A stretch of 64,000 bases of DNA from an uncultured Christensenella sp. Its GTDB lineage: Bacteria; Bacillota; Clostridia; Christensenellales; UBA3700. How positions within the stretch are numbered: position 1 is the first letter of the stretch; every line of letters begins with the position of its first letter. Below the pieces are notes generated by a model. It was not told the DNA's origin, searched no databases, and saw only the letters and a list, made by a program, of their open reading frames with translations. Where the stretch lies: assembly GCA_964478025.1 (NCBI GenBank), contig CAYZGK010000001.1:23631-87630 (forward strand). Direction: 5' to 3'. Positions 2,467 to 50,800 of this stretch are shown in pieces. A program made the position numbers and the translations under genes.

Positions 2467-2472
2467 AACTAA

Positions 2473-3498: not shown

Positions 3499-3507
3499 GG
3501 AACATGT

Positions 3508-4329: not shown

Positions 4330-4332
4330 TAA

Positions 4333-27422: not shown

Positions 27423-27457
27423 TATTAACACTCCAATAATCTATTTATCTATATTAT

Positions 27458-32855: not shown

Positions 32856-32890
32856 ATGATACAATAAAATCATAATTGGAGGTCCCGAGT

Positions 32891-34207
32891 ATGTATGAAT
32901 GCAATAACATTGAGTTTAAAAGTGAAGTTAACGAAAAATTAGAAAAAGAAGTTGTGGGGTTCTTAAATAGTAATGGTGGACATATTTATTTGGGAATAGA
33001 AGATGATGGAGAAACTGTTATTGGCTTTGAAGATATTGATCAAGCCCAATTGCTTGTTAAAGATAGAATCAAAGATAAGATAGATCCTTCGCCTGTTGGA
33101 TTTTTTGAAATTATTGTAGAAGAAAGAGAAAATAAAAAAATAATACATGTAATCGTTGCTAGAGGAAATGAAAAACCTTATTATTTAAAGAAATATGGCA
33201 TGTGCCCCCTTGGTGCATTTGTAAGAGTCGGAAGTTCTCTTTCTCAATTAACAGAAAAACAAATTTTTGACATGTATTCTAAAAGAACGAGAACTTCATT
33301 AATTAATATTGTTTCGCCAATTAAAAACTTGACTTTTACTCAATTAAAAATATATTACGAAGAAATAGGATATGAAATAAATCCTAATTTATATAATCAA
33401 TTAAATTTCAAGATGAATGGTGGTGAATTTAATTATTTAGCATACTTACTATCTGACCAAAATAGTTTAGTAATTAATGTAGGAAAATTTAAGGGGAATG
33501 ATGTTTATGATTTAGAAGAATTAAAATCATATTCAAATCAGTCTCTTATTAAAACTACACATGAAATTGTAGATTATATTGAAAGTTTAAATAAAACATT
33601 TACTAAAATAACTTCCTCAAAAAGAATTGAAGAGAAATTGTTTGATAGTTTGGCAATGAGAGAAGCTGTTATAAATGCTATAGTCCATTCTGATTATAGT
33701 TATGAAAACTCTCCTACATTTAGAATATTTGATAATCATATTGAAATCATATCCGTTGGTGGTCTACCTGAAGGCATAGAAAAAGAAGAATTTTTAAATG
33801 GATATATGTCTCCTAAAAATCCTCAATTAATGAAAATATTTAGGGATTTAGGATTTGTTGAACATATGGGAACTGGAATAATTAGAATCCTTAAAAAGTA
33901 TGATAAATCGGTTTTTAATTTTAGTACTAATTTTATAAAGGTATCTATTCCCTATAAGAGTGCTTTAACAGTATCAGTCTTTAATAAAACATTGAGTCAA
34001 AGTACAACAAACATTGATATAACCAATAGGCAAAGAGAGATAATTGATTTAATTAATCGGTTTAAGAATATTACACAGGAAGAATTAGCATCCAAATTGA
34101 ATGTATCTAGATATACAATAATAAGAGATTTAAAATCTTTAGAAGAAAAAAATATTATATTTCGTGAAGGATCAAATAAAACTGGCTACTGGAAAGTTAA
34201 TAATTAA
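32891..34207 (+). CDS. AlbA_2 (Schlafen-like) domain / ATPase-like / C-terminal wHTH protein (often annotated as RecG-like putative transcriptional regulator)
   Basis: N-terminus ECNNIEFKSEVNEKLEKEVVGFLNSNGGHIYLGIEDDGE..EKPYYLKK fits the AlbA_2 domain. The central part REAVINAIVHSDYS...GGLPEG...RNPQLMKIFRDLGFVEHMGTGI fits the HATPase_c_4-like region. The C-terminal HTH is ITQEELASKLNVSRYTIIRDLKSLEEKNII. I chose the ATG at 32891 over the ORF-track TTG at 32876, because that TTG overlaps the GGAGG. Confidence 0.8.
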   Translation: MYECNNIEFKSEVNEKLEKEVVGFLNSNGGHIYLGIEDDGETVIGFEDIDQAQLLVKDRIKDKIDPSPVGFFEIIVEERENKKIIHVIVARGNEKPYYLKKYGMCPLGAFVRVGSSLSQLTEKQIFDMYSKRTRTSLINIVSPIKNLTFTQLKIYYEEIGYEINPNLYNQLNFKMNGGEFNYLAYLLSDQNSLVINVGKFKGNDVYDLEELKSYSNQSLIKTTHEIVDYIESLNKTFTKITSSKRIEEKLFDSLAMREAVINAIVHSDYSYENSPTFRIFDNHIEIISVGGLPEGIEKEEFLNGYMSPKNPQLMKIFRDLGFVEHMGTGIIRILKKYDKSVFNFSTNFIKVSIPYKSALTVSVFNKTLSQSTTNIDITNRQREIIDLINRFKNITQEELASKLNVSRYTIIRDLKSLEEKNIIFREGSNKTGYWKVNN

Positions 34208-34417
34208 AATTTTCTTTAAATATGTGTATATTGCAAGTGAATGAAATATATCATATTTCTATAAAAGTTTATCTATAGGTTTGGATGGACAATATAGAAT
34301 TTAAAATATTAGTGGTTTATCCACAAAATTTTACAAAAAAAGTATTATAAAAAGGTTTTTAATTTTTATGACATAAAACAATTAATAGAGAAAAATGCGG
34401 AGTGAAGTTAATGGAGG

Positions 34418-34483
34418 ATATAAAAAGATAATTTGCTTTTTCAATTAATTTTAATTGTACCAGTAATATCTAAAATTGACTTA
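34418..34483 (+). repeat. 66-bp direct repeat, copy B
   Basis: ATATAAAAAGATAATTTGCTTTTTCAATTAATTTTAATTGTACCAGTAATATCTAAAATTGACTTA. 63 of 66 positions are identical to 36183-36248. The 21-nt core ATAATTTGCTTTTTCAATTAA also occurs inverted at 27638-27658. Confidence 0.85.
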
Positions 34484-34518
34484 ATCCAAATTTTTAGGTG
34501 GTTAAACTCCAAATATTG

Positions 34519-34690
34519 GGTTCACGAGATTATTGAGTGTTTATAAGAATTTTATTGGAAAAGTGCAAAAAATACTATTTTTTCTTTTGGAAAAGTGCAA
34601 TTTTGGTTTAAAATATTATTAGAAAAGTGTAATTTTATTGTATATTATTATTGAAAATAAGCATATTTGAGGAAATGTTTGGAAACTTTA
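34519..34690 (+). repeat. about 170-bp direct repeat, copy 2 (orphan promoter/operator remnant)
   Basis: It matches 32223-32395, including three (A/T)TT(G/A)GAAAAGTG(C/T)AA words at a 32-bp period (34554-34635). Only a 20-codon ORF follows it, so the ATPase gene that belongs here appears to be deleted. Confidence 0.8.
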
Positions 34691-35016
34691 TGCATAATTC
34701 ATACATTGTTAATAGCAAAATGGGCATAAGATAAAATCTTTGCTCACTTTTTTGCTCGCTTTTTAAAACTATATAGTATAATTGTTAATGGTAAACTGAA
34801 AATGCTGTAAAATGGCCAACTTAAAATGCTGTTTTATAGAAGTTTTAGTATAATCTCAGTATAAGCCCTAGCGGTTCACGAAAAGTGAAGGTTATACAAA
34901 ATAAGAAAAGACATTATAATCGTGTAAGTCAAAATGGCTATCGTTTTTATTTAACTAAATGTTTACAAAGAGTATGAACTTGGATCCTTTGAATTGGAAT
35001 TGCTCAAATTATATGT

Positions 35017-35083
35017 AATTTGCCCAATTTTAATCGAATTTGTGCGTTTAATCGCCCAAATCTATTGACAATCGCCCAATTTG
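35017..35083 (+). promoter_or_regulatory. AAT(C/T)GCCCAA word array upstream of the fic-like gene
   Basis: AATTTGCCCAATTT (35017-35030), AATCGCCCAAAT (35050-35062) and CAATCGCCCAATTT (35069-35083). Looser relatives are AATTGCTCAAATT (about 34998-35010), AATTTGTGCGTTT (35037-35049) and AATTGTGCAAAAA (about 35091-35103). ATG at 35121. Confidence 0.5.
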
Positions 35084-35120
35084 CTGGTAGAATTGTGCAA
35101 AAAGATAAGGGATTAGGCGC

Positions 35121-36167
35121 ATGAGAAACTTTGATTACAAAAAGCTAAAGGATATTAAGTGGGATAGTGAGATATTGGGATTGGTTGCTCAAATACATGA
35201 ATTTAAAGGGAAGCAGATGTTATTTTTAAAACAAAAGCCAGCAACGCTTGATAAACTTGTAGAGATAGCGAAAATACAAAGCACCGAGGCTTCCAATAAA
35301 ATAGAGGGCATTGTAACTACGGCTACTCGTATTAAGCAGTTATGCGACCAAAAGACTACACCGAGAAATAGAGACGAAGAAGAAATTTCTGGGTATCGAG
35401 ATGCTCTGTCGCTAATTCACGAGAGTTATGAGTATATTCCGATAAAATCTTCATATATTTTGCAATTGCATCAGGTATTATATCGTTATTCTGAAAGGGG
35501 TATCGGTGGTAGATTTAAGAATGCGCAAAACTATATTGCAGAAATCAAAGAAACCGGCGAACAAATTGTGCGTTTTATGCCACTTGATCCATTTGAAACC
35601 CCGATGGCAATAGAGGCAATATGTGAAAGCTTTAATCGTGAAATGGATTTTTGCGAAATTGATCCGCTTATTCTCATTCCGGCGTTTATTATTGATTTCT
35701 TATGTATTCATCCATTCAATGACGGCAATGGAAGAATGTCGCGTTTGCTTACGACTTTGCTTTTATATCGTGCGGGGTATGTTGTAGGTAAATATGTGAG
35801 TCTGGAGAGCAAAATTGAAAAAACAAAAGCAAGTTATTATGAAACGCTCGAAAAAAGTGATATTGGTTGGAACAGCGAAGAAAACGATATAATTCCTTTT
35901 ATAAAATATATGCTCGGAACAATTTTGGCTGCTTATAGAGATTTCGAGGAAAGAGTAACTTTGGTGGAAGGTAAATCATTGGCAATCGATTTAGTGAGAA
36001 ATGCAGTAAATAATACAATTGGCAAGTTTACTAAGAGCAATATAATGGAACTTGTACCATCCGTAGGCAAAACATCTATTGAAAATTCTTTAAAAACTTT
36101 AATCGACGAAGGAGTTATAGGAAGAGAAGGCAAAGGAAAGGCAACGTTTTACTTTAGAAAAAATTGA
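35121..36167 (+). CDS. Fic-family protein (class II, N-terminal inhibitory helix) with C-terminal wHTH
   Basis: Fic active-site motif HPFNDGNGRMSR. N-terminal inhibitory motif SNKIEG, which fits (S/T)xxxE(G/N). The C-terminal segment KSNIMELVPSVGKTSIENSLKTLIDEGVIGREGKGKATFY is wHTH-like. TGA stop. GC content is higher than in the neighbours: 23/60 in line 35521, against 15/60 in line 36301. Confidence 0.9.
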   Translation: MRNFDYKKLKDIKWDSEILGLVAQIHEFKGKQMLFLKQKPATLDKLVEIAKIQSTEASNKIEGIVTTATRIKQLCDQKTTPRNRDEEEISGYRDALSLIHESYEYIPIKSSYILQLHQVLYRYSERGIGGRFKNAQNYIAEIKETGEQIVRFMPLDPFETPMAIEAICESFNREMDFCEIDPLILIPAFIIDFLCIHPFNDGNGRMSRLLTTLLLYRAGYVVGKYVSLESKIEKTKASYYETLEKSDIGWNSEENDIIPFIKYMLGTILAAYRDFEERVTLVEGKSLAIDLVRNAVNNTIGKFTKSNIMELVPSVGKTSIENSLKTLIDEGVIGREGKGKATFYFRKN

Positions 36168-36182
36168 CGAGATTAATATAGA

Positions 36183-36248
36183 ATATAAAAAGATAATTTA
36201 CTTTTTCAATTAACTTTAATTGTACCATTAATATCTAAAATTGACTTA
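36183..36248 (+). repeat. 66-bp direct repeat, copy C (supplies the -35 box of the FkbH operon promoter)
   Basis: ATATAAAAAGATAATTTACTTTTTCAATTAACTTTAATTGTACCATTAATATCTAAAATTGACTTA. It differs from copy B at 3 positions. Confidence 0.85.
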
Positions 36249-36269
36249 GATTTCCTATATATTTATAAT
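36241..36269 (+). promoter_or_regulatory. sigma-A-type promoter of the FkbH-ACP-MBOAT operon
   Basis: TTGACT (36241-36246), a 17-nt spacer, then TATAAT (36264-36269). The -10 box ends 8 nt before the ATG at 36277, so the transcript has a very short leader or is leaderless. Confidence 0.5.
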
Positions 36270-36276
36270 ATATTAT

Positions 36277-38001
36277 ATGAAAGAAATATCTTACTTAGAA
36301 TTAAAAAGAAATTGTAAAAAGGAAGTTTCGGAAAATTTCTTAAAGTATTCTTTAGCCGTAGTAGGTACATCATCAACTCAACATTTATCTACTGCAATTA
36401 AAGGCTATGCTTATGAAAAAAATATTAATCTTAATGTTTTAGATGTAGATTATAATCAATTAAATTCTCAATTTTTAGATCCAGAATCTGAGGTTTTTAA
36501 TTTTAATCCTAATGCAATTTTAATTTATATAAGTACAGAATCTTTGTTTAATGAATTTATAGAAACTCCATTGAATAAAAGAAATAGTTTTGCGCAAGAT
36601 AAAATAAATCTTATTAGATTATACTGGGATTCTATAATTAAAAATTCAAAAGCTAAAATTTTACAATACAATTTTGTTTGCTTCAATACAGAAGTTTTTG
36701 GTTCGTTTGCATACAATGTTGAAACTTCATTTGAATATCAAATTCAATTATTAAATATGAAATTGTATGAATATTCTAAAGAAAAAAATGTATCAATAAT
36801 AGATTTAAATGATATTCAATCAAAAATGGGGAGAGATGTATTTTTTGATGATAAAATGTTTTATATGGCCAAAATGCCAATTTCTTTACAAGCTCTTCCA
36901 AAAGTTGCACAAAATACAGTGTCAATTATTGAGGCCGCATTAGGTAAAATAAAAAAATGTATAATTTTAGATTTAGATAACACTCTTTGGGGTGGAGTTA
37001 TTGGGGACGATGGCTTAGAAAACATACAAATAGGGGAATTAGGTATCGGTCAAGCATTTACTCAATTCCAAAGATGGTTAAAACTATTAAAAGAAAGAGG
37101 AATTTTACTAGCAGTATGCAGTAAAAACAATGAAGATGTTGCAAAACTACCTTTTGAAAAACATCCAGAGATGATTTTAAAATTAGATGATTTTACAATG
37201 TTTGTTGCTAATTGGGAAGATAAAGCTTCAAATATAAGATATATTCAAAAAGTTTTAAATATAGGAATGGATAGTATGGTCTTTATCGATGATAATCCAT
37301 TTGAGAGAAATCAGGTAAAATCTTCAATACCAGAAATTTGTGTTCCTGATATGCCACAAGATCCAGCTCTTTATTTAAAATACTTAGAAGATTTAAATTT
37401 ATTTGAAACTCTAAGTTTTTCTAAAGAGGATTTAAATAGAAGCGAACTTTATAAAGTAGAGTCAAAGAGAATGGAATTACAACAAAAAAGTTCTAATTAT
37501 GATGAGTTCTTAAAAAGTTTAAACATGGTAGCACAAGCTAAACCTTTTGATGAATTTTATGTTCCACGTATCTCTCAATTAACACAAAGATCAAATCAAT
37601 TTAACTTAAGAACTAAAAGATATGATGTTGAAGATATAGAGAAAATAAGTAAAGATAATAATTACATAACAAGATATTTTACCCTAAAAGATGATATGGG
37701 AGAGTATGGTCTTATAAGTGTATTAATTTTAGAGAAAAGAAAAGATTATTTATTTGTAGATACTCTTTTGATGAGTTGTAGAGTTTTAAAAAGAGGAATG
37801 GAAGAGTTTATTTTTAATGAAATAACTAAAATTGCAAAAAATAATGGCTATAAGAAAGTAGTAGGTGAATATATAAAAACAGAAAAAAATGCTATGGTTA
37901 AAGATTTATATAAAACCATGGGATATAAAGATGTAGGAAATGGACTATTTGAACTTGTTGTTAACGAATATAAAAATAAAGAAGTTTATATAAAGGAATA
38001 A
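36277..38001 (+). CDS. FkbH-like HAD-IIIC phosphatase / acyltransferase-domain protein
   Basis: 574 aa. HAD motif I ILDLDNTLWGGVIGDDG, motif II LAVCSKNNEDVA, motif IV VFIDDNPFERNQV. The C-terminal GNAT-like part has LLMSCRVLKRGMEEFIFNEI, as seen in FkbH/OzmB-type proteins. Confidence 0.8.
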   Translation: MKEISYLELKRNCKKEVSENFLKYSLAVVGTSSTQHLSTAIKGYAYEKNINLNVLDVDYNQLNSQFLDPESEVFNFNPNAILIYISTESLFNEFIETPLNKRNSFAQDKINLIRLYWDSIIKNSKAKILQYNFVCFNTEVFGSFAYNVETSFEYQIQLLNMKLYEYSKEKNVSIIDLNDIQSKMGRDVFFDDKMFYMAKMPISLQALPKVAQNTVSIIEAALGKIKKCIILDLDNTLWGGVIGDDGLENIQIGELGIGQAFTQFQRWLKLLKERGILLAVCSKNNEDVAKLPFEKHPEMILKLDDFTMFVANWEDKASNIRYIQKVLNIGMDSMVFIDDNPFERNQVKSSIPEICVPDMPQDPALYLKYLEDLNLFETLSFSKEDLNRSELYKVESKRMELQQKSSNYDEFLKSLNMVAQAKPFDEFYVPRISQLTQRSNQFNLRTKRYDVEDIEKISKDNNYITRYFTLKDDMGEYGLISVLILEKRKDYLFVDTLLMSCRVLKRGMEEFIFNEITKIAKNNGYKKVVGEYIKTEKNAMVKDLYKTMGYKDVGNGLFELVVNEYKNKEVYIKE

Positions 38002-38004
38002 AAA

Positions 38005-38241
38005 ATGGAAAGAGAAGAAGTTTTTAATAAGTTAAAAGAAATTTTTAATGATGTTTTTGATAGAGATATAGAATTAAATGAATCTACTCAAGCAAAAGAT
38101 GTCGATGGTTGGGATTCATTGACTCATATAACTTTAATTGCTCAAATTGAGGAAGAGTTTGATATGAAGTTTACAATGAAGGAAGTTTTAGGCATGAAAA
38201 ATGTTGGAGAAATGGTAGATATAATCCTTAGAGAGGCTTAA
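38005..38241 (+). CDS. acyl/peptidyl carrier protein
   Basis: 78 aa. Phosphopantetheine attachment motif DVDGWDSLTHITLI, followed by the acidic helix EEEFDMKF. Confidence 0.85.
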   Translation: MEREEVFNKLKEIFNDVFDRDIELNESTQAKDVDGWDSLTHITLIAQIEEEFDMKFTMKEVLGMKNVGEMVDIILREA

Positions 38242-38242
38242 T

Positions 38243-38599
38243 TTGATAGGAAATATAGCAAATTTAGTAATTCTTAATAATTATCCATATTTAGCACTAG
38301 TATTTGTGGTAATTATGTTTAGTGTTTTTTCAATGCTTTCTAGACAACTTAGAATTGTTTTAAGATTTTTTGCTGTATTTTTCTGGATAATACAATTTAT
38401 ATGGCAAATATGCTGGGGTTGTACCATCCAAGAACTTATTATTGTATGGGCTGTAGAATTGTTAGTATTTTGGTGTACTACAAAAAAGCCTTCAAAAATT
38501 ACAACACAGAGTAAGGATAACTTAGTTCCACCAAATTTTAATGAGGAAGATGAAAAATCTTTAGAATCAATACTAAATAAAAAGGAGGATGAAAAATAA
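38243..38599 (+). CDS. small polytopic membrane protein, unknown function
   Basis: 118 aa from the TTG at 38243 (start uncertain; an internal ATG gives about 97 aa). Three hydrophobic segments (LALVFVVIMFSVFSML, FFAVFFWIIQFIWQICWG, LIIVWAVELLVFWCT) and then a charged tail. The stop overlaps the MBOAT start (TAATG). Confidence 0.5.
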   Translation: MIGNIANLVILNNYPYLALVFVVIMFSVFSMLSRQLRIVLRFFAVFFWIIQFIWQICWGCTIQELIIVWAVELLVFWCTTKKPSKITTQSKDNLVPPNFNEEDEKSLESILNKKEDEK

Positions 38600-40203
38600 T
38601 GAGCTTTACATCCGCTTGGTACCTACTTTTTATTGCTATAGTATTTGTCTTATATTACGCACTTCCTAAAAAATATCAATGGGGTGTTTTACTTGCATCA
38701 TCCTTAGTTTTTTATCTAATAGCAGGTTTTACTTATTTTATTTATTTAGTTGCATCCATCTTAATAACATATTTTGTTGGCCTATTTATTGACTTAATGA
38801 ATAAAAAACAGGAAAAGGAAATATCCTTAAAAGAGAATATAACAAAAGAAGAAAAGAAGAGTATAAAGAAAGCATATAATACTAAAAAAAGTTGGATTTT
38901 AGCAGCTGGAATTATTTTAAATTTAGGAATTCTTTTAGTTGTTAAATATATAGATTTTATTTGTGGAAATGTTGTTTCACTTTTAAATTTAATGGGAGTT
39001 AATCTTTCTTGGAATGAATTAAACTTTGTTCTTCCACTTGGTTTATCTTTCTATACATTCCAGTCAATTGGCTATTGTATAGATGTTTATCGTGGAACAA
39101 TAGAAGCAGAAAAAGACTTATTTAAATATGCATTGTTTATATCATTCTTTCCGCAAATACTTCAAGGTCCAATTGGTAGATATAACACACTATCTCCACA
39201 ATTATTACAGGAACATAAATTAAATTATGATAATGTTTTTGAAGGAACTCAAAGAATAATTTTAGGATATTTTAAAAAGATAGCAATTGCAGACTTTGTT
39301 GGAATATTTGTTAATGATGTTTTTGCAAATTCAGCAAATGCATTTGGTATAGTTGGCGTCTTAGGTGCAATAGGTTATGCAATTCAATTATTTGCCGATT
39401 TTTCAGGTTTCATGGACATTGCTTTAGGCTCAGCTAAATTGTTAGGAATAAATCTTGATGAAAACTTTGATAGACCATATCTATCAAAAACAATTCCAGA
39501 ATATTGGAGAAGATGGCATATCTCTTTAGGTGCTTTCTTTAGAGACTATGTATACTACCCACTTCTTAGATCAAAATTATGTACTAAACTTTTAAAGAGT
39601 AAACATAAAAAACTTGGTTCAATTATTGCTACTTCTTTAAGTTTATTTGTAACATGGTTTTTAATTGGCCTTTGGCATGGAGCAAGTTGGACATATGTTT
39701 TCCATGGAATATTCTACGGTTTAATTATTATAAGTGGACTTATACTAGAGCCTATTTATAAGAAAATAAAAGAAGTATTACATATATCAAATACAAACAA
39801 AGTATTTAATTGCTTCCAGGTTCTTAGAACAATGACAATTGTTTGCTTTGGATATATTTTATTTAGATCAACAAGTTTAAGTAATTTTGCAAGTTATATA
39901 ACTGCTGTGTTTAGTGGTAGTGGTATTAATGAATTTGTAAGCTTTAAAACTATCTTTAATTCTGAAATAGTAAATATCTATATTTACTGGGCTCAAATAA
40001 TTATTTTATGTGTTGTTTGGGGAGTTATGAATCACCAATTTATAGATTCTAAGAGTTTACCTGTGGATGATGTAAGAGTTTCTATTTGGAGAAAACAAGC
40101 TACACTAAATTGTATAATCATGATAGTAATAACAATTGCTTCATTTATCCTTGTAAAATCACTAGGTGGTCAAACAGGAGGATTTATTTACTTCGATTTT
40201 TAG
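38599..40203 (+). CDS. MBOAT-family membrane O-acyltransferase (DltB/AlgI-like)
   Basis: 534 aa and polytopic. Conserved blocks LGLSFYTFQSIGYCIDVYRG, YWRRWHISLGAFFRDYVYYPL and FLIGLWHGASWTYVFHG (the MBOAT histidines). Confidence 0.9.
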   Translation: MSFTSAWYLLFIAIVFVLYYALPKKYQWGVLLASSLVFYLIAGFTYFIYLVASILITYFVGLFIDLMNKKQEKEISLKENITKEEKKSIKKAYNTKKSWILAAGIILNLGILLVVKYIDFICGNVVSLLNLMGVNLSWNELNFVLPLGLSFYTFQSIGYCIDVYRGTIEAEKDLFKYALFISFFPQILQGPIGRYNTLSPQLLQEHKLNYDNVFEGTQRIILGYFKKIAIADFVGIFVNDVFANSANAFGIVGVLGAIGYAIQLFADFSGFMDIALGSAKLLGINLDENFDRPYLSKTIPEYWRRWHISLGAFFRDYVYYPLLRSKLCTKLLKSKHKKLGSIIATSLSLFVTWFLIGLWHGASWTYVFHGIFYGLIIISGLILEPIYKKIKEVLHISNTNKVFNCFQVLRTMTIVCFGYILFRSTSLSNFASYITAVFSGSGINEFVSFKTIFNSEIVNIYIYWAQIIILCVVWGVMNHQFIDSKSLPVDDVRVSIWRKQATLNCIIMIVITIASFILVKSLGGQTGGFIYFDF

Positions 40204-40204
40204 C

Positions 40205-41218
40205 ATGAAAAAAGTAGTTAGTTATTTGTTAATAATATTTTTAGCTATTTTAATTCCGTTTACTGCAATAACAGGAATCGTCTTATTATATCCAGATTAC
40301 TATCAAAATTCTTACGCAAGATCCTTAGCCCTTCAATACAATTATTTAAAAGAAACACAAAATACTCAAAGAATAGTGTTTGTTGGTACATCATCTTTAG
40401 TTTTCGGAATCGATGTAGATATGATTGAAAAAGAGTTTAAAAATAAAGGTTACAATGCTGTTGTATTATTTGGTTCATATGGCGCAATAGGTAATGAATG
40501 TATTTTAGATTGGACAAGAAAATATATAACACCAGGTGATCTAGTAATTTATATGTACGATATGTACGATTATGCTATGAATCCATATTTTTCTTCAACT
40601 TTAACAATTGAAGGAACATTTAGAAACTATGAAATGTTTTCAGATTTAAACTCAAGAGATAAGTGTCAATACCTAGCTCATCTTCCTACTTATATGAAGG
40701 ATAATATTTATTCATATAATCAAGCTAAAAGACCAAGACAGTATAGAACTTGTTATACAATCACTTCATTTGACGAAAAGGGAAGGCTAACATATTTTAG
40801 AGAATCAAATACTATGGGTGGTATTAATAAGGAAGAACAAACTATATGTTATATAAGTCCTAGTATGATAAATCCGGAGTGGACTTCTTATATAAACGAC
40901 TGGGCAGATGAATTAAGAGAAAATAGAGCTGTTGTATATTTTAGTTATGGACCTATGGATAAGGATTTGTGTATGCATAAGGATACAACTAAAGAAAGCG
41001 TTGAATCGTTTTGTAGTGAATGGGAAGAACAAATAGGGATAGAATCTATTAATAATATGTGGGATTGCTATCTTCCAGATTCTTATTTTTATGATAGCGT
41101 TTATCACTTAAATTCATATGGGGCTCAATATTTTACTTCTTATATGATAAGAAATATAGAAATGCAAATATATGGTGAAACAAATTATGAAATTGTAATT
41201 CCAAGTGAGATAGCATAA
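40205..41218 (+). CDS. membrane-anchored extracytoplasmic protein, DltD/SGNH-like candidate, paralog 1
   Basis: 337 aa from the ATG at 40205, 1 nt after the MBOAT stop (the ORF-track start at 40166 would overlap the MBOAT gene). One N-terminal TM (VVSYLLIIFLAILIPFTAITGIVLL). Motifs RIVFVGTSSLVFGID (DltD-like GSS Ser block) and VYHLNSYGAQYF near the C-terminus. The fold assignment is inference. Confidence 0.5.
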   Translation: MKKVVSYLLIIFLAILIPFTAITGIVLLYPDYYQNSYARSLALQYNYLKETQNTQRIVFVGTSSLVFGIDVDMIEKEFKNKGYNAVVLFGSYGAIGNECILDWTRKYITPGDLVIYMYDMYDYAMNPYFSSTLTIEGTFRNYEMFSDLNSRDKCQYLAHLPTYMKDNIYSYNQAKRPRQYRTCYTITSFDEKGRLTYFRESNTMGGINKEEQTICYISPSMINPEWTSYINDWADELRENRAVVYFSYGPMDKDLCMHKDTTKESVESFCSEWEEQIGIESINNMWDCYLPDSYFYDSVYHLNSYGAQYFTSYMIRNIEMQIYGETNYEIVIPSEIA

Positions 41219-42265
41219 ATGACAAAAAAAACGAAAGCCATAATTTATATAACTTGTCTTATTCTATTAGTTTTAATACCAATAGGTGGAATGGCTTGTT
41301 TTATAATGTGTGCCGATGTATATAGTGATTCCTATGAAAGAGGATTACAAATACAATATAACTACCTAAAAAACACAAAGGGTGAAGAAAGAATAGTATT
41401 TGTTGGAAGTTCGTCGCTTCTTTTTGGAATTAATGCAGAGGATATAGAAAAAGAATTTAATAAAAAAGTAGTAATATTTGGCTCATATGGAGCTGTTGGA
41501 AATACAGTTATGCTAGATTGGGTAGAGCCTTATGTAACTAGTAAAGATATTGTTATTTTTATGTATGATATCTATAGAGGTTCTATGCCAATATATTTTA
41601 CGCCAGATATTGCAATTAAAGCTTCTATAAATTCTCCATCAATGTTTAAAGATTTAAGTGAAAAAAATAAGGCCAATTATATTGCTGGTCTTACTGAATA
41701 TTTAAAAGATGTTTGTGCAAGACTATACAATCATTCTTCTATAAACTATGAAAATACAGTTTATTCTATTAGATCTTTTGACGAAAAAGGCCGACTTAAT
41801 TATTTTAGAGAAGCTAATATAATGGAAGGAAAAACAAATAAAGAGACAACTTATATAGGCCCTAGTATTATAAAAGAAGAACTTACTTCTTATATAAAAG
41901 ACTGGGCTAATAAATTAAGACAAAAAGGAGCAAAAATTTTATTTGCTTATGGCCCTTATAATGATATTTCAAAAAATTTATTAACAACAACATCAAGCAT
42001 AAAAGCCTTTGAAGAAAAATGGGAAGAGCAAATAGATATAGAGGCAATAAATAGCCTTGTAGATACAAAACTATCTTATAGATTATTCTACAATGAGGAT
42101 TTTCACTTAAATTCTTATGGGGCTGATTTCTTTACTCAAATAATCATAAAAGACATTTATGAAAGTTCCTTGTATAATATATTTACTTATTCAATAAAAA
42201 TATCGGATAATGTGCCAGGTTCAATGAAGAAGGATATGGAAAATTATGTTGCCTCAAGATTTTAA
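41219..42265 (+). CDS. membrane-anchored extracytoplasmic protein, DltD/SGNH-like candidate, paralog 2
   Basis: 348 aa. The ATG directly follows the upstream TAA. Collinear with paralog 1 (SYERGLQIQYNYLKNT..RIVFVGSSSLLFGIN..FGSYGAVGN..SFDEKGRLNYFREAN..FHLNSYGADFF). Confidence 0.5.
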   Translation: MTKKTKAIIYITCLILLVLIPIGGMACFIMCADVYSDSYERGLQIQYNYLKNTKGEERIVFVGSSSLLFGINAEDIEKEFNKKVVIFGSYGAVGNTVMLDWVEPYVTSKDIVIFMYDIYRGSMPIYFTPDIAIKASINSPSMFKDLSEKNKANYIAGLTEYLKDVCARLYNHSSINYENTVYSIRSFDEKGRLNYFREANIMEGKTNKETTYIGPSIIKEELTSYIKDWANKLRQKGAKILFAYGPYNDISKNLLTTTSSIKAFEEKWEEQIDIEAINSLVDTKLSYRLFYNEDFHLNSYGADFFTQIIIKDIYESSLYNIFTYSIKISDNVPGSMKKDMENYVASRF

Positions 42266-43514
42266 AGAAGATATAAAATTAATTTTAAATAATGAGTATG
42301 ATGACTTTATATCTACCTATAATGAAGAAAGTTTTAAAGGATTAAGAATAAATACTTTAAAGCTTAAAAATAAAGACATATTGCCATTTTCATTAACTAG
42401 TATTCCATGGTGTAATGAGGGTTTTTATTATACAAGTAAGGATACACCTGGTAAGCATGTATACCATGAAATGGGGCTTTATTATATCCAAGAACCAAGT
42501 GCAATGATGGTTGCAAAAAATCTTGAAATAAATGAAGGAGATTTTGTTTTAGATATGTGCGCAGCACCTGGTGGAAAAAGTACACAAGCTGCAGCATATT
42601 TAAATAATCAAGGTTTAATAGTATCAAACGAAATAATTCCAAATAGAGCTAAAGTACTTTCCTCTAATATTGAAAGAATGGGAATTAAAAATGCAGTAGT
42701 TGTTAGCGAAGATACATCAAAATTAAAAAAGAGATTTAAAAATTTTTTCAATAAAATAATTGTAGATGCGCCATGCTCTGGAGAAGGTATGTTTAGAAAA
42801 ATACCTGAGGCTGTTAATGAGTGGTCTAGAGAAAATGTTTTAATGTGCGCAGAAAGACAAAAAGAAATTCTAAAAAATGCAGTGGAACTATTGCAAGAAA
42901 ACGGAAGAATAATCTATTCAACTTGTACTTTTTCATTGCAAGAAGATGAAAATATTGTAGAGTGGTTTTTAAGCGAATATACCGATTTTAAATTAGTAAA
43001 ATCACATAAGCTTTGGCCTCATAAAGAAAAAGGTGAGGGGCACTTCTTTGCTTTATTTGAAAGGGGAGATTTAAGTAAATCAAATTTAAATTTACCAATA
43101 AAAAAGGTAAAGCAAAATCCAGATTTTGTTAAATTTGTAAAAGAATTTTTAAATGTAAATATAGAATATAATACACAATTTGGAGATAATCTATACCTAT
43201 CTCCTATAGATAAATTAGATGGCCTAAAAGTCTTAAGATGTGGTCTTCATTTAGGCGAATTAAAGAAAAATAGATTTGAGCCATCTCACTCTCTTGCTCT
43301 TGCATTAAAAAGAGAAGATTTTAAAAATGTAATAGATTTAAACTCTCAAGATAAAGAAGTTTATAAATTCTTACAAGGAGAAGCAATAGAAACATCTATA
43401 AAAGGATGGGGAGTTGTGTGCGTGGATGGTTATCCTCTTGGCTGGTTTAAGGGAGATGGCACTTTAGCAAAAAATCATTATCCAAAGGGGTTAAGGAAAG
43501 AGATTGAATACTAA
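42246..43514 (+). CDS. RsmB/RsmF-family rRNA (cytosine-C5)-methyltransferase with C-terminal PUA-like domain
   Basis: N-terminus MLPQDFKEDIKLILNNEYDDF (RsmF-like). SAM motif LDMCAAPGGKST. Catalytic blocks IVDAPCSGEGMFRK and IIYSTCTF. It overlaps the upstream gene by 20 nt. Confidence 0.8.
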   Translation: MLPQDFKEDIKLILNNEYDDFISTYNEESFKGLRINTLKLKNKDILPFSLTSIPWCNEGFYYTSKDTPGKHVYHEMGLYYIQEPSAMMVAKNLEINEGDFVLDMCAAPGGKSTQAAAYLNNQGLIVSNEIIPNRAKVLSSNIERMGIKNAVVVSEDTSKLKKRFKNFFNKIIVDAPCSGEGMFRKIPEAVNEWSRENVLMCAERQKEILKNAVELLQENGRIIYSTCTFSLQEDENIVEWFLSEYTDFKLVKSHKLWPHKEKGEGHFFALFERGDLSKSNLNLPIKKVKQNPDFVKFVKEFLNVNIEYNTQFGDNLYLSPIDKLDGLKVLRCGLHLGELKKNRFEPSHSLALALKREDFKNVIDLNSQDKEVYKFLQGEAIETSIKGWGVVCVDGYPLGWFKGDGTLAKNHYPKGLRKEIEY

Positions 43515-44809: not shown

Positions 44810-47800
44810 ATGAAAAAGAAATTATCAGTATTATTAATAATTGTATTAGCAATTGTACTTATATGTACAACGTCTGTTTGTTTTGCAGATAGTGAAGAAG
44901 CTTCAAGCGTTTCTTCAACAACTCTAACCTCGCTTGCCGGAGAGGAGATAGATATTAGTAATATTGAAAATTACTTAACTGAAAATATATTAAATGCTTC
45001 ATTAGACGAAACGGTTAGAGTAATTGTTAAATATAACGATGAAAAGAGCCATAATATAGTTGATGATCTAAAAACACTTGGATGTGAGGTAACACTAAAT
45101 TATACATATTCAAAATTCTTTACCGGAAGTTCAATAACTATACTTTCACAAGATATATTAAGCTTATCTAATTTATCTTATGTAAAGAGCGTTTCGATAT
45201 GTCCACAATATACTGTTTTATCAACCTATTCATCATCCTCTGGTACAAATGAAGGTATTATAGATAATACTACATCATATCAAGGAGACGGAATGGTAGT
45301 TGCTGTTATTGATGGATCGTTTGATGTAACTCATGAGGCTTTTTCTAATATATCTTCAACATCTTTAACTATTACAAAAGATACTTATTCCCAAAGTTTA
45401 ATTAAGAGTTTAAATTCATACTCATTATCAGGTGCTACGGCTGCTGATTTATATTTATCAGATAAAATTGTATACGCTTATGATTATGGTGAATACGATG
45501 TTGATGTATATGACGCAACTTTATCTCATGGTACTCATGTAGCTGGAATTTTAGCAGGAAATTCATCTACCTTTAAAGGAGTAGTTCCAAATGCACAATT
45601 AGCATTAATGAAGGTTGCTGATTCTGAAGGCATAATGTATGATGATTCAATTATTTCAGCACTTGAGGATTGTCTAACTTTAAATGTTGATGTAGTTAAT
45701 ATGTCACTAGGATCTAATGGCGGATTTAGTTATAAAGATGATGACGGAATGATGCTAGCTATAGATAAACTAGAAAGCCAAGGAATAACAGTTGTTTGTG
45801 CTGCTGGTAACGCAACAACAAGTGCTGTTGGGGGTGAGAGTGGAGATTTGGCCGATGAGGCAAACATAGATAATAGTGCAGTTTGTTCTCCAGCTACATA
45901 TGCTTCTTCTTATTCTATAGGTAGTGCTGCTGAAATAAAATATATGATGGTAGGCTCTTCAAAAATAGAATACAATGATGTTTATTACTATAAAACCTCA
46001 TCAGATGGTGATTTTTATAATGATTTTGTATCTTCAGGTTCACTAGATTACATCATCTTAAAAAATAGCGATGATATAGCATATGGCAAAGAGAGTGATT
46101 ACGAGGGATTAGATGTAACAAATAAAATAGTAGTTGTACAAAGATCTGCCGATATGACAGTAACTGAAAAAATAGCAATAGCTAAAGAAAAAGGTGCAGA
46201 AGGTGTAATTATTGTTAATAATACTGAAGGCTCAGTAAATTTTGGAGTTCAAGGCTCAGATACCGTACCAACTATTTCAGTAACATCAAGCGTAGGTAAA
46301 ATATTAATACAAAACGCTATTTCAAATGAAGGTACTCTTACATTAGATTCATCATATTATTATTCTGGAATTTCAAGTTTTTCTTCAAGAGGAGTAAATG
46401 ACGATTTAACTTTAGGTATAGATGTTGTTGCATATGGAACAGGGATTTACTCTTTAGGATTAGATCAAAGTTATATGACAAACTCTGGAACATCAATGGC
46501 CTCACCAAATGCGGCTGGTGCATTTACTGTTATAAAACAATATGTAAAAGCAAATGCTTCAACATTCGGCATAGATGCTACAAATAAAATTGAAATATCG
46601 ACAGTTGCCTCACGACTTTTAATGTCAAATACAACACTTCTTACAGACATTAATGGAGTGTTATATTCACCACGTTCACAAGGTGCAGGACTTGTAGATA
46701 TAAATAAGGCAACAAGTACATTATCTTACATTACAACTTTTGATAGTGATGGTAATGAAATAGATAAAACAAAAATTGAACTTGGAGATAACGTAAGTAA
46801 TTCATTTGTATTAAAACTAAAGGTTTCTAACTTTAGTACAACAAGTGAGACTTATGAAATTTCAGCAAACGTATTAACAGAAGCTCTAACAGAAGATAAT
46901 AAAATGAGCGGACTTGATGAAGAGTTAACTTTTGCAATTATAAACGTTAAAAATGGAAACTTTAGCAATAATAAATGGACTGTAACTGTTGATGCTGGGT
47001 CAAGTGCTGAAATTGAAATTACAATTGCATTAGATAGCAGTGCAATGCTTATTCTAGATAAATTCACAAACGGAACATATGTTGAAGGTTATGTTTATCT
47101 AAATGGAATTAATAATACATTAACTTGTCCATTTATTGGATTCTATGGCGACTGGGACGATGCTTCTATGTTAGATATAACAGCATACGATGAGGCAAAT
47201 GGAAGTGAAGCAGCAATGAGAGCTTCTACATCTTATGGTATATATGCAGGAAGTTATTACATCCCTATGGGTGAGTATGCATATGAAGTTGCAGAAGGTT
47301 ATGAAAAACCAACAGCTAACGAAGAATATTCAGCTCTATCAATTTATTCTTCTTCAATGTATGCTCTTGGTTATATCCAACTTGGATTACTTAGAAATGC
47401 AGAGAGAATTGAACTTGTTGTGTCTGATTCAGTAACAGGAAGCGTTTTAACTACTGGAACAATAGATTATGCAACTAAGACAATGTATTTTTCAGCTTAT
47501 GGCATGCTTTATGGTGGAGATTTAACATTAACAATTTCTCCATATAAGTTAGGGTTAAGCAATAACGGAAAATATAATGTTACATTAAACATTTATAGAA
47601 CATATGATGAGGAAAGTGAAAAAAATACAATTTCAGACACATATACACAAAACTTCTATGTAGATTATGAATTACCTGAAATTACAGATATAAAATATAC
47701 AACAGAAAATGGAAAGGTTTATGCAAATATTGAAATGTATGATAACCACTACATTCAAGCAATAGGAATTTGTACAGGTAAAGGAACAAGTGCTACAAAT

Positions 47801-50800
47801 GTAACGCTAACAGCACAAGATTTCTATCCTGTAGCAACAAGTGCAGATGGTGTTGGACAAACAAAGAGCTTAAAGATAGATATAACTGACGCTATATCTA
47901 AAGCTTCAAATGGTTATATTTATTTCTATGTTGTAGATTATGCTTTTAATGCTAATATCTATTACGATTCTATCTCTAATATGGGAAATCAAACATCTAC
48001 AAGTAAAAAGGGAGATACATCAGATTCTAAAGGACCAACAGCTCAAACTGATTTAACTGAATCTAAATTTGAATTTGTAAGTAGCGAGATAGAAATTGCA
48101 GTTGATCAAGAAATAGATTTAGCTCAAACAAAATATTTAACAGGATATAACGTTGAAGATACATTTACATGGACTGCCTCAAAAGGAACTATTTTAGCAA
48201 TGTCAAATGGTAAAATTACTGGTTTATCTGAAGGTATGGCAGTAGTTAGCGTAACTAATAAGAATAATGTTACTACAAGTTTAATTGTTAATGTTGTTGC
48301 AGATTCTAATAATGAATATGAGTCAGCTACATTTGAAAAGGCTTATATAAGTGGCTATTCAATGAAAAACACTATAACCGAAGATGGCGATTCTTTCTTT
48401 GATATAAATGTTGAAAATAATGAAATAAAACTTGCTCCAAATGAGTCATTAAGATTTGAATATGGTTATACTCCTTATAATTATAACTATGTAGAAAATC
48501 CTATAACTATTTATATAAATATTGCGGATACTAATATTGTTTCACTAACAAATGGAACATTAAAGGCGGTAAGCGAAGGAACAACAACAGTTACAATAAA
48601 GGTTAATGGAGCAACAGGAACAACAATTGCAGAGTATAGTGTAACTGTATCTCCAGAGATTTATATAAATGAAAATAAGGTACTTTTAGCTTGCTTTAGT
48701 TTAGATACAAATATTGACTTATCTTCAAAAGATATAGTTGCAATAAGTTCAAAGGCATTTACTTATGCTAAAAATGCAGAAACTATTACGCTTCCAGCCA
48801 CATGTACAACAATAAGTGAGTATGCTTTTGCAAAGAACGCATCAATTAAAAATGTAGTGTTTACAAATAATAAAGTAACCTATATTAAAGATCATGCATT
48901 CTCAGGCGATGTATGTTTAGAGAGTATTGATTTAACAGGAGTTGCTCAAGTGGGTGATTATGCATTTGAGAATTGTTCAAACTTAAATGAAATAATTTTA
49001 GACTCTCAAACAGTATCAGATATTTCAATTTCTATGCTTGCTTTTGATGGTTGCAGTAAACTTGAAAATTTCACAATTGATGGAAATAAAACTCCAAATA
49101 TAATTATTGATGGCATGCTTGTAATGTCGCTAGATTATGAGTCAATACTAACAGATTCAACTATAAAGAGCATTGGCAAAAATGTATTTAGTAACTTAAA
49201 GAATGAAGATACTATTGATTTAACAGGAACATCTATTGAAAGAATAGAAAATGGGGCCTTTGAGGGCAATAGTGAGATTAAATACGTTTACTTGCCTTCA
49301 AGTATAAATTACATTGGTTCTAACGCCTTTAGTGACTGTGAGAGTTTATGTACATTAAATATTGCATCTGGTAGGGGAGATTTATATATAGGCTCATATG
49401 CTTTTGCTAACACTGCTATTGATATAATCAATATAAAGGATAAGACAACAACACTTGGTGATTATGTATTTATGGGAGACACATCGCTTGTTGGTGCAAT
49501 GCTTGGTTCTGTTCAAAAGATAGGAAAGTATACTTTTGCAAAGTGTACAAGTTTACAAAAAGTTGTACTTGCTGATGGCTCTAAAGATTTAGGAACATAT
49601 ACTTTTGCTCCAATTACTGAAAATAATAAGACATATTATTTAAGTAAATTAAGCACTGTTACTATTCCAAATACAATAACAAGTATTAAGGAGTACGTAT
49701 TTGCTTATTGTACTTCATTAAAGACTTTAGAAACTTCAAATATTGAAAGTGTTGGTGATTATTCATTCTATGGTTGTACATCACTTAATAGTCTTGCATT
49801 TAATAAGGCAAGTAGTATTGGATACGCTGCCTTTGCAAACTCATCAATTCAATCTATTGAAATAGGAAACTCACTAACAAGTGGAACAATTGATATAGAT
49901 GGTGTTGCCTTCTATGGATGTGAAAACTTATCTACTGTAAAGTGGCCAACAAGTGAAGGAATTTCAATAAAGGTAGGTTATGGTTCTTTCTATAAATGTA
50001 CAAGTCTAGCTACAAGTAACTCATTTGTAATAGGTGGTTTTAAACCTACAACAAGTAGTGGAATTAATTTATCAAGAGTAGAAAGTGTAGAAGATTATGG
50101 TTTTGCATACTGCGAAGCTTTAAATAGAATTGACTTAACTAATTGTAAAGAAATTGGTTATGCAGCCTTTGCAGAATGTTCAAAGTTAACATCTGTAACA
50201 TTAGGAAGCGTTGAGTCTATAGAAGATTTAGCATTTATAAATACAAAGATTACAAAAATAACATTGCCAAGCAGCCTAACATATCTTGGTATGGCAGTAT
50301 TTGGTGGAACATCAGCAGTTGTAAGTGTAGAAGATAATAATAATTTAGTTGTAGATGCTACAAGCGATGGATATTCTGTAATTTATACAAAATTAGATAA
50401 TGGAAGTTTAATGCTTGCATATTACCCAATATCTTCAACATCAACATCATACTCAATTAAAGCTAATACAAGTTATATCTCAAGTTATGCATTCTATAAT
50501 GCTCAATCATTAAAGAGTATAACAATACCTGCTACTGTTAAATATATAGGACATGCAGCATTCTATGGTTGTTCATCATTAAGTAGTGTTTACTTTAGTG
50601 GAACATCAGCTCCAGCGTTACTTGCTGAATATAATTCTGATGAAGATGACTTATATTGTAATTTCGTAAATTATGTATCAGAAGTTGAGGGCTTAACATT
50701 ATACGTTGGTTCTAATAGTGTAAAAGAAACATTTAACAACAATCCAACTTGGTCTTCTTTCTTTAGCAGTATAAGAGTTTCTTCTTCGATTGATATTGTT

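Follow-up and report, generated by a model that had tools for sequence, protein, structure and literature searches.

A Six-Gene Operon from an Uncultured Christensenella Combines an FkbH-Type Loader and Carrier Protein with a Fused-Shuttle MBOAT and Anchored SGNH-Like Proteins in a Putative Envelope Acylation System

Introduction

Bacteria acylate envelope polymers by D-alanylation or, in the case of peptidoglycan, alginate, cellulose, and wall polysaccharides, by O-acetylation, and these modifications govern how cells withstand lysozyme and cationic peptides, the properties of biofilms, and recognition by the host. Two donor logics are recognized for machines that pair a membrane-bound O-acyltransferase (MBOAT) with an SGNH-fold partner: acetyl coenzyme A (acetyl-CoA) with a shuttle Tyr fused to the MBOAT, and D-Ala on the carrier protein DltC with a shuttle on DltX. 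A six-gene operon from an uncultured Christensenella sp. raises the question of which donor logic it follows, what it would deliver, and to what acceptor. The operon lies in a 64,000-nucleotide stretch of contig CAYZGK010000001.1 (the whole stretch is called the window here) and encodes an FkbH-type loader (gene 1), a stand-alone acyl carrier protein (ACP; gene 2), a small membrane protein (gene 3), an MBOAT (gene 4), and two anchored proteins (genes 5 and 6).

The operon is probably a trans-membrane O-acylation machine of the MBOAT/SGNH kind, whose donor would be the carrier-protein thioester made by the FkbH-like enzyme and not acetyl-CoA or D-Ala. The best-supported description of its architecture is a hybrid, in which a Dlt-like carrier-protein donor arm is placed on a PatAB-like fused-shuttle core. 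The proposal draws on the domain identities and catalytic motifs of the encoded proteins, the fused shuttle motif of the MBOAT, an SGNH-like fold, and gene linkage over many lineages.

The Loader and Its Carrier Protein

An earlier note on this DNA, made from the sequence alone, had described gene 1 as an FkbH-like HAD-IIIC protein. Profile searches bore this out: the loader scored 314.8 bits on the curated FkbH model TIGR01686 (cutoff, 146.65) and 72.5 bits on the HAD-IIIC model TIGR01681 (cutoff, 35.75). It consists of three domains, an N-terminal FkbH_N domain (E = 4.6e-56), an HAD-IIIC phosphatase, and a C-terminal GNAT-fold acyltransferase. In the predicted structure (pLDDT 81.6), the C-terminal domain resembles GNATs (TM-score 0.6-0.73 in a structure search) and contains Cys501, the putative acyl acceptor by analogy with OzmB. 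The HAD domain adds S282-K283 and D338-D339 to its DxDxT motif, and the DxDxT, S/K, K, and DD residues, together with S500-C501-R, are invariant in 22 loader homologs. BF1531 of Bacteroides fragilis (PDB 3slr), a structural-genomics target annotated only as "uncharacterised," matches loader residues 5-383 (E = 3e-114) and shares the N-terminal and HAD domains, with 47% identity in a structural alignment. Unlike the loader, the crystallized fragment is without the GNAT-fold transferase domain.

The identification of gene 2 as a carrier protein also stood, with a PP-binding domain (E = 3e-7) and the phosphopantetheine-site motif GWDSLTH, in which Ser38 is the predicted attachment residue. The ACP scored 16.4 bits on the DltC equivalog NF003464 (cutoff, 68) and was likewise below cutoff on generic ACP models.

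Characterized FkbH/ACP pairs turn 1,3-bisphosphoglycerate into glyceryl-ACP (PMC7489565). The FkbH/ACP routes of polyketide and tetronate pathways (FkbH, OzmB, Mad7/Mad8, and Mad14/Mad12) resemble the window operon in combining an HAD-IIIC domain and a Cys-bearing transferase with a stand-alone ACP. Unlike those pathways, the operon and its flanks contain no ketosynthase, FabH-like, dehydrogenase, O-methyltransferase, or methoxymalonyl partners, and domain scans of the operon found no ketosynthase, FabH, or cytoplasmic transferase as another consumer of acyl-ACP. With a membrane-embedded MBOAT and its SGNH partner outside the cytoplasm as the proposed consumers, the product would be exported as a surface ester and not built into a polyketide.

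The MBOAT Carries Its Own Shuttle Motif

Gene 4 encodes an MBOAT (PF03062, E = 1.3e-16), in agreement with the earlier reading of its GLWHGASW motif, and both of its His motifs align with those of DltB. The nearest solved relative is DltB (PDB 6bug; E = 2e-31, residues 139-383), an enzyme that takes a carrier-protein donor, which counts in favor of a carrier-protein donor here. The alignment with DltB stops at residue 383 of 534 in the window MBOAT and at residue 355 of 425 in DltB, and the score on the DltB equivalog TIGR04091 was 181 bits (cutoff, 375). Approximately 170 residues follow the second His motif, compared with ~80 in DltB, giving the window MBOAT a C-terminal extension of ~90 residues with hydrophobic stretches.

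The last six residues of the MBOAT, which the earlier note had missed, form an FxYxxF acyl-shuttle motif. The Tyr of this six-residue motif takes over the acyl group at the MBOAT and hands it on to the SGNH protein; Dlt systems have the motif on the microprotein DltX, PatA/AlgI-type acetyltransferases have it as part of the MBOAT itself, and the acyl-Tyr shuttle chemistry has been demonstrated for DltX and PatA (PMC12148441). Tyr531 is the predicted acyl-Tyr carrier of the window MBOAT. Among full-length MBOATs encoded beside relatives of genes 5 and 6, 58 of 59 finish in a FIYFQF-type motif, and the four other FkbH-linked MBOATs read to their ends all finish in FxYxxF (FIYYDF, FIYAGF, FLYFQF, and FIYYSF). 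A six-frame scan of the window found no second C-terminus with this motif, and the window therefore has no DltX. The Dlt-type core proposed earlier was thus not upheld: the MBOAT has its own C-terminal FIYFDF, as PatA/AlgI-type enzymes do, and is of the fused-shuttle type, not the DltB type.

By analogy with Dlt, gene 3 might be expected to fill the role of DltX. Its product is, as first described, a 118-amino-acid protein with approximately three transmembrane (TM) segments; it has an acidic C-terminal tail and no family in Pfam or NCBIfam scans. Neither gene 3 nor its small-TM relatives contain FxYxxF, the window has no DltX-like open reading frame (ORF), and the role of DltX analog was ruled out by motif, by topology, and by the presence of the family in mostly loader-free operons. 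That distribution also means that gene 3 is not tied to the carrier-protein arm. Of 58 loci with this SGNH subtype (SG type), 39 have a gene for a small TM protein immediately before the MBOAT gene, compared with 4 of 35 others, and gene 3 is, from these sequence comparisons, a putative accessory of the SG-type MBOAT/SGNH module, present with or without a loader. Members of this family of small proteins (e.g., L018:7279-7539 and L009:7175-7537, where L-numbers here and below label loci of the sampled relatives) have 70-120 amino acids and approximately three TM segments, and they share a weak G-x-x-x-x-E signature that lies within the membrane.

Genes 5 and 6 Resemble DltD at the Level of Fold

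The products of genes 5 and 6 are N-terminally anchored paralogs, as first described, with 44% identity (E = 2e-95). Pfam, NCBIfam, and phmmer searches returned no match for either, and the family profile found no DltD chain among PDB sequences. An assignment to DltD/SGNH by sequence was accordingly rejected; only a fold search and motif conservation connect them. For the AlphaFold model of gene 6 (pLDDT 77, pTM 0.80), the best Foldseek match was DltD from Enterococcus faecalis (PDB 6o93; E = 8e-5, probability 1.00, TM-score 0.36-0.40), and the next were a rhamnogalacturonan acetylesterase, another DltD, and PatB. Given the modest TM-score, the likeness to DltD counts as fold-level evidence only. 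The suggestion that these proteins are DltD/SGNH-like therefore holds for fold and not for sequence.

Within the family, G63 is invariant and S65, D292, and H296 are each conserved in at least 90% of members (consensus GGSS ... YFYDxNFHLN). Gene 6 has Asn at residue 292; Asp occupies this position in gene 5 and in all six of the closest relatives that were compared. The single copy in L089 is 44.8% identical to gene 5 and 38.2% identical to gene 6. Gene 5 is, by these comparisons, probably the ortholog of the single copy of relatives, and gene 6, with Asn at 292 and lower similarity to that copy, looks like a diverged tandem duplicate. Without the conserved Asp, gene 6 may have altered or lost catalysis; it might serve another acceptor, act in hydrolysis or editing, or have a noncatalytic role.

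The gene 5/6 family comprises 3,438 representative clusters in an exhaustive profile search, 330 of them at E <= 1e-30, overturning the impression of a very rare orphan family given by a word-indexed search with eight matches. Most members have ~475 amino acids and a C-terminal BspA-type leucine-rich repeat (LRR) domain. The family occurs in the genomes of at least 520 species, mainly gut and rumen Clostridia, Bacilli, Anaeroplasmatales, and Erysipelotrichaceae.

Loader, Carrier Protein, and MBOAT Are Linked across Lineages

The FkbH subfamily to which the loader belongs (~575 amino acids) has thousands of relatives at ~55% identity, and the system is widespread, not rare. From the FkbH side, 80 diverse metagenomic loci (33-58% identity, many biomes) were sampled, and 41 of these had at least 3.5 kb of sequence downstream. 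Within those 41, an ACP was found near FkbH in 30, usually immediately downstream, and an MBOAT was found within ~6 kb in 21. An ACP also directly follows FkbH in L001, L012, L086, L087, and L089. The combination of FkbH, ACP, MBOAT, and an anchored SGNH-like protein was seen in L001, L012, L086, L087, L089, L091, L099, L104, L106, L108, L123, L126, L142, and others; the co-occurrence on which the earlier proposal depended is thus conserved across lineages.

The order of the window lineage (FkbH-ACP-small TM-MBOAT-SGNH) is kept, together with downstream synteny, in L001/L002 (~40% identity) and L089/L090 (67% FkbH identity). Other orders include FkbH-ACP-MaoC-MBOAT-anchored 370-amino-acid protein-aldo/keto reductase in L086 and MaoC-SDR-anchored 323-amino-acid protein-FkbH-ACP-MBOAT-Lipase_GDSL in L087/L088 (GCA_002449785.1), where SDR is a short-chain dehydrogenase/reductase. 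The proteins encoded after the MBOAT in FkbH cassettes (282-375 amino acids) have no Pfam match; those that were read contain a TM anchor, G-x-S, and a DxxH-type motif. Their profile aligned with that of the gene 5/6 family with an hhalign probability of 98.1% (E = 7e-14, 292 columns).

The window MBOAT shares 40.5% identity with that of L087, compared with no more than 36.8% with any loader-free MBOAT. FkbH-linked MBOATs had a nearest neighbor of the same class in 25 of 26 cases and a Fitch score of 4, compared with a random mean of 22.5, a clustering that is partly confounded by the sampling of the two classes by different routes and by the tightness of the loader-free clade.

A different picture emerges from the gene 5/6 side. 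At 85 loci sampled around relatives of these genes, an MBOAT adjoined in 77, FkbH was present in three, and an ACP was present in four. On these counts, the idea that the gene 5/6 family always goes together with FkbH/ACP was rejected; the linkage is visible from the FkbH side. The usual loader-free operon encodes a lipoprotein-like paralog of ~800 amino acids that contains LRR and SGNH-like domains, a small TM protein, an MBOAT, and an SGNH-like-LRR protein, and is presumably PatAB-like and CoA-dependent. The cultured Blautia schinkii DSM 10518 (L082) has the loader-free module alone.

Two independent functions, placed side by side, might produce the same gene order: an acetyl-CoA-dependent O-acetyltransferase (PatAB/AlgIJ-like) next to an FkbH/ACP pair that makes glyceryl-ACP for a lipid, for N-acylation of a nucleotide sugar, or for a small metabolite. 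Such an explanation would account for the lack of loader and carrier in most MBOAT/SGNH relatives, which have the same fused FxYxxF known from acetyl-CoA users. It also fits the 20 of 41 FkbH loci with enough flank but no MBOAT nearby, from which it follows that FkbH/ACP pairs serve other consumers too. Set against it are two observations: many unrelated lineages, with SGNH partners of more than one subtype, have FkbH-ACP immediately before MBOAT-SGNH at gaps of only 0-3 nt, and the linkage reaches 51%, which by a rough background estimate lies far above chance for a gene with a few copies per genome. In addition, the window operon has no other possible acyl-ACP consumer, tailoring enzymes sit between the ACP and the MBOAT of other cassettes, and the FkbH-linked MBOATs group together. 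Taken together, these points make two separate functions quite improbable.

A second carrier-protein-fed variant was seen in a Christensenellaceae metagenome-assembled genome (MAG; CAJUKR010000008.1). There, L040:5445-9942 encodes an AMP-binding enzyme, an ACP, a 586-amino-acid MBOAT ending in FIYFQF, and a protein of the gene 5/6 family, amounting to a Dlt-style adenylating loader on a fused-shuttle MBOAT. This arrangement indicates that the fused-shuttle module can recruit different carrier-protein loaders.

Tailoring Genes and the Proposed Acyl Group

Sister cassettes give an indication of what the carrier protein may hold. A MaoC dehydratase and/or an SDR was present in 13 of 34 MBOAT-linked FkbH loci, and tailoring genes are inserted between the ACP and the MBOAT in sister cassettes, where the ACP-bound unit would be tailored by a dehydratase and a reductase. 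This resembles FkbH-DH-KR loading modules, which make lactyl starters. In a Bacilli MAG (JBAXZU010000001.1), L012:2089-12148 has the order FkbH-ACP-BcrAD/BadFG activator-HGD-D subunits-small TM-MBOAT-two SGNH-like genes, in which the MBOAT is split, apparently by a frameshift. Judged by their domains, the BcrAD/BadFG and HGD-D proteins encoded there between the ACP and the MBOAT would form a 2-hydroxyacyl dehydratase system. The chemistry would be unusual, in that a radical-type dehydratase apparently modifies a unit on an ACP before an MBOAT exports it.

The placement of MaoC, SDR, and 2-hydroxyacyl dehydratase genes between the ACP and the MBOAT fits a 2,3-dihydroxyacyl-S-ACP that is handed to the MBOAT. 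The window contains no MaoC, SDR, or HGD tailoring genes, and the predicted product of its operon is therefore an untailored glyceroyl group. An FkbH-type loader in place of an adenylating enzyme likewise points to a hydroxy acid derived from an acyl phosphate, not to an ATP-activated amino acid, and the acyl group is probably glyceroyl.

The same machinery could instead carry another cargo, with phospholactate, phosphoglycolate, or a different acyl phosphate as the source and an ester other than glyceroyl as the product. The loader subfamily is distant from the assayed FkbH enzymes of polyketide pathways, its solved relative BF1531 carries no functional label, it has a large N-terminal domain, and the window offers no tailoring enzymes that would reveal the intermediate. 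We nevertheless consider another cargo rather unlikely, given a loader that scores far above cutoff on an FkbH model spanning both the HAD and transferase halves, catalytic motifs that are all invariant, and tailoring enzymes in sister cassettes (MaoC for 3-hydroxyacyl, HGD-type for 2-hydroxyacyl, and SDR) that are those expected for a 2,3-dihydroxyacyl thioester.

For the glyceroyl route, the following sequence of steps is proposed. In the cytoplasm, the FkbH-like protein would take a phosphorylated C3 acid, most likely 1,3-bisphosphoglycerate; its HAD domain would strip the phosphate, and the acyl group would be held on Cys501 of the GNAT-fold domain and passed from there to the phosphopantetheine arm of the ACP to give glyceryl-S-ACP. 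Like DltC with DltB, the charged ACP would dock on the MBOAT from the cytoplasmic side and deliver its thioester, and the conserved His of the MBOAT would catalyze transfer to Tyr531 in FIYFDF at the outer face, as in PatA. The block-I Ser of an anchored SGNH/DltD-fold protein (gene 5, perhaps gene 6) would then pick up the acyl group from Tyr531, and this protein would form an ester with a hydroxyl on an acceptor outside the cytoplasm, which is probably a glycopolymer of the wall or one linked to the membrane.

The Acceptor

Relatives of the ArgRS encoded in the window (77% to a "Clostridiales bacterium" MAG and 67% to Christensenellales) put the host among uncultured Clostridia, and the host wall is likely of Gram-positive type. 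The acceptor may differ from a glycopolymer: a membrane glycolipid or a surface protein, such as the 2,151-amino-acid S8/BspA-LRR protein encoded nearby, could be modified, or the SGNH-like pair could be esterases that take the acyl group off instead of putting it on. In favor of such readings, genes for polysaccharides or teichoic acids are absent from the flanks of the operon, the giant surface protease with LRRs keeps its place two genes further on throughout the window lineage, and most members of the gene 5/6 family elsewhere have the BspA-type LRR, a protein- or ligand-binding module. In addition, gene 6 lacks the conserved Asp, and SGNH folds are mostly hydrolases (PMC12148441). We judge these alternatives improbable, since the characterized bacterial MBOAT/SGNH pairs all acylate glycopolymers (PMC12148441), an anchored SGNH partner directly behind the MBOAT is a transferase in every known system, and the S8/LRR synteny is limited to the window lineage and absent from other FkbH cassettes.

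The 2,151-amino-acid protein itself contains an S8 subtilase domain, PA, Fn3, and five BspA-type LRR_5 regions, and a C-terminal hydrophobic stretch resembles a membrane anchor by eye. In L001 and L089, its gene has the same position relative to the operon. The same LRR_5 type occurs in most members of the gene 5/6 family and is lacking from the two window copies; a functional link is speculative.

Comparison with the Dlt and PatAB Systems

The operon shares with Dlt a cytoplasmic loader that charges a small phosphopantetheinyl carrier protein encoded beside the MBOAT, an anchored extracytoplasmic partner of predicted SGNH-like fold for which DltD is the best structural match, and a tight operon. 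It differs in its loader, since none of the six proteins is an AMP-binding enzyme of the DltA type and an FkbH/HAD-IIIC protein is found instead. It also differs in its shuttle, with FxYxxF fused to the MBOAT where Dlt places it on DltX; in sequence, with the MBOAT, ACP, and SGNH protein all below the Dlt equivalog or Pfam thresholds; and in two additional components, a protein with three TM segments and the other SGNH paralog. Of the Dlt-like operon put forward in the earlier note, the composition of loader, carrier, MBOAT, and anchored SGNH protein remains, and DltA, DltX, and scores above the DltB and DltC thresholds are lacking.

PatA/PatB-type systems (PatAB, PatA1B1, AlgIJFX, WssHIFG, and CcsHI) share with the window an MBOAT with a C-terminal extension ending in FxYxxF and a separate membrane-anchored SGNH-fold partner encoded immediately downstream of it. 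The loader-free relatives of the window module (small TM protein, MBOAT, and SGNH-like paralogs) look exactly like this class. According to a 2025 mechanistic paper, non-Dlt MBOAT/SGNH systems use acyl-CoA and no carrier protein (PMC12148441). In contrast, the window operon encodes a dedicated ACP and loader, conserved with the MBOAT in many lineages and predicted to provide the donor, and its SGNH partner belongs to a family without a Pfam model and with DxxxH spacing.

Several points weigh against a carrier-protein-fed acylation machine. The chemistry of the route is inferred throughout, as are the acyl group itself, its hand-off from ACP to MBOAT, and the acceptor. The loader substrate could be another phospho-acid, its sole solved relative being the uncharacterized BF1531. 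The modeled similarity to DltD is at the level of fold only and was not recovered by the family profile, and the Asp of the gene 5/6 family lies at -4 from the His (DxxxH), not at the canonical DxxH spacing. The confounded sampling lessens what the clustering of MBOATs can say. Loader-free MBOAT/SGNH relatives are the majority, and the lineage can work without a carrier, presumably with acyl-CoA. Finally, no glycopolymer, polysaccharide, or teichoic-acid genes were found near the operon.

The window operon and its relatives represent a third combination next to the two recognized donor logics, in which an FkbH-charged carrier protein would feed a fused-shuttle MBOAT. Somewhat short of probable is the broader proposal that FkbH-ACP-MBOAT-SGNH cassettes form a third class of envelope acylation, in which a carrier protein would donate a hydroxy acid by way of a shuttle Tyr fused to the MBOAT, installing glyceroyl esters or, with MaoC, SDR, or HGD enzymes, lactoyl or other C3 hydroxyacyl esters on surface polymers of numerous gut commensals and environmental species. 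The literature searched, whose coverage was incomplete, gave no description of a characterized FkbH-ACP-MBOAT-SGNH system, in keeping with the earlier note, and its only mention of a nonpolyketide FkbH protein was cj1302 in a flagellar-glycan island of Campylobacter. If true, the model would add an undescribed class of hydroxy-acid ester decorations to abundant gut Firmicutes and environmental bacteria and would give FkbH chemistry, so far limited to polyketides and tetronates in the retrieved papers, a role in the cell envelope. A donor drawn straight from glycolysis could tie envelope properties to central carbon flux, the cassettes and their loader-free relatives would offer a natural experiment on how MBOATs choose between carrier-protein and CoA donors, and the decorations may have relevance to host and phage recognition. 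Assays already in use for Dlt and PatAB could put the model to a direct test.

Layout of the Operon and Its Surroundings

Features of the window are collected in Table 1. The six ORFs lie where the earlier note had placed them, on one strand, with gaps between consecutive genes of 3, 1, -1, 1, and 0 nt, and all of the motifs quoted there were located (DLDNTLWGG, CSKN, FIDDNPFER, MSCRVLKRGMEE, GWDSLTH, GLWHGASW, VFVG(T/S)SSL, and HLNSYGA). For gene 5, the ORF list gives a GTG start at 40166; the ATG start was preferred, its homologs being 337 amino acids long.

Table 1. Coordinates of the operon, its sequence motifs, and other features of the window
Feature	Position (nt)	Strand	Remarks
FkbH-type loader (gene 1)	36277-38001	+	574 aa
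HAD motif D232xD234xT236	36970-36996	+	In loader
S500-C501-R motif	37771-37806	+	In loader, C-terminal GNAT-fold domain
Stand-alone ACP (gene 2)	38005-38241	+	78 aa
Phosphopantetheine-site motif GWDSLTH	38107-38127	+	In ACP
Small membrane protein (gene 3)	38243-38599	+	118 aa, TTG start
Weak G-x-x-x-x-E signature GCTIQE	38417-38434	+	In gene 3
MBOAT (gene 4)	38599-40203	+	534 aa
His motif WRRWHISL	39505-39528	+	In MBOAT
His motif GLWHGASW	39667-39690	+	In MBOAT
FxYxxF acyl-shuttle motif FIYFDF	40183-40200	+	Last six MBOAT residues (...GGFIYFDF)
SGNH/DltD-fold paralog 1 (gene 5)	40205-41218	+	337 aa, ATG start
VFVGTSSL	40376-40399	+	In gene 5
FYDSVYHLNSYGA	41087-41125	+	In gene 5, conserved Asp of family kept
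SGNH/DltD-fold paralog 2 (gene 6)	41219-42265	+	348 aa
VFVGSSSL	41396-41419	+	In gene 6
FYNEDFHLNSYGA	42086-42124	+	In gene 6, Asn replacing near-invariant Asp of family
Promoter-like site TTGACT-17-TATAAT	36241-36269	+	Unverified; 11/12 positions match
RsmF-type 16S rRNA methyltransferase	42246-43514	+	Seventh co-directional gene, 20-nt overlap with gene 6
Seven small anchored-protein genes	59-5587	+	
6,459-aa ORF	5823-25202	+	
AAA_14/DUF4143 ATPase	26241-27431	-	
DUF6088 and AbiEii-type genes	27778-29311	+	
P-type ATPase	29674-32211		
SLFN/AlbA_2-HATPase_c_4-HTH and Fic/DOC genes	32876-36167	+	
S8/BspA-LRR surface protein	44810-51265	+	2,151 aa
AAA_14/DUF4143 ATPase	54304-55620	+	

The promoter proposed earlier is present as a site, and such sites are not enriched in the AT-rich window over shuffled sequence (49 observed; 51.8 expected). 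The end of its -10 box lies 7 nt from the ATG of the loader gene, before which no Shine-Dalgarno sequence was found, and the mRNA would therefore be leaderless if this candidate promoter were used. Downstream, the overlap of the RsmF-type gene with gene 6 and the lack of terminator-like sites before 43691 mean that the transcription unit may extend beyond 42265. The RsmF-type gene is probably co-transcribed with the operon and is not counted as part of the acylation system; L001 and L089 share this arrangement, and other FkbH cassettes lack the gene.

The window is otherwise ordinary chromosome (genes for ArgRS, CysRS, YchF, BirA, and RsmF) with toxin-antitoxin and defense inserts. Between the P-type ATPase gene and the loader gene lie an SLFN/AlbA_2-HATPase_c_4-HTH gene and a Fic/DOC gene; in L001 and L089 the ATPase gene directly precedes FkbH, and the two intervening genes therefore look like a lineage-specific insertion. 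An AbiEii-type nucleotidyltransferase toxin is encoded behind a weakly matching DUF6088 gene, and together with the two AAA_14/DUF4143 ATPases this suggests defense or toxin-antitoxin islands among housekeeping genes. Near the start of the window, a 6,459-amino-acid ORF encodes a protein rich in Ser, Thr, Gly, and Asn, with an N-terminal TM anchor and no Pfam domain in either half. It is preceded by seven co-directional genes for small N-terminally anchored proteins, four of which were scanned and had no Pfam match. The appearance is that of a giant orphan surface protein accompanied by a gene cluster.

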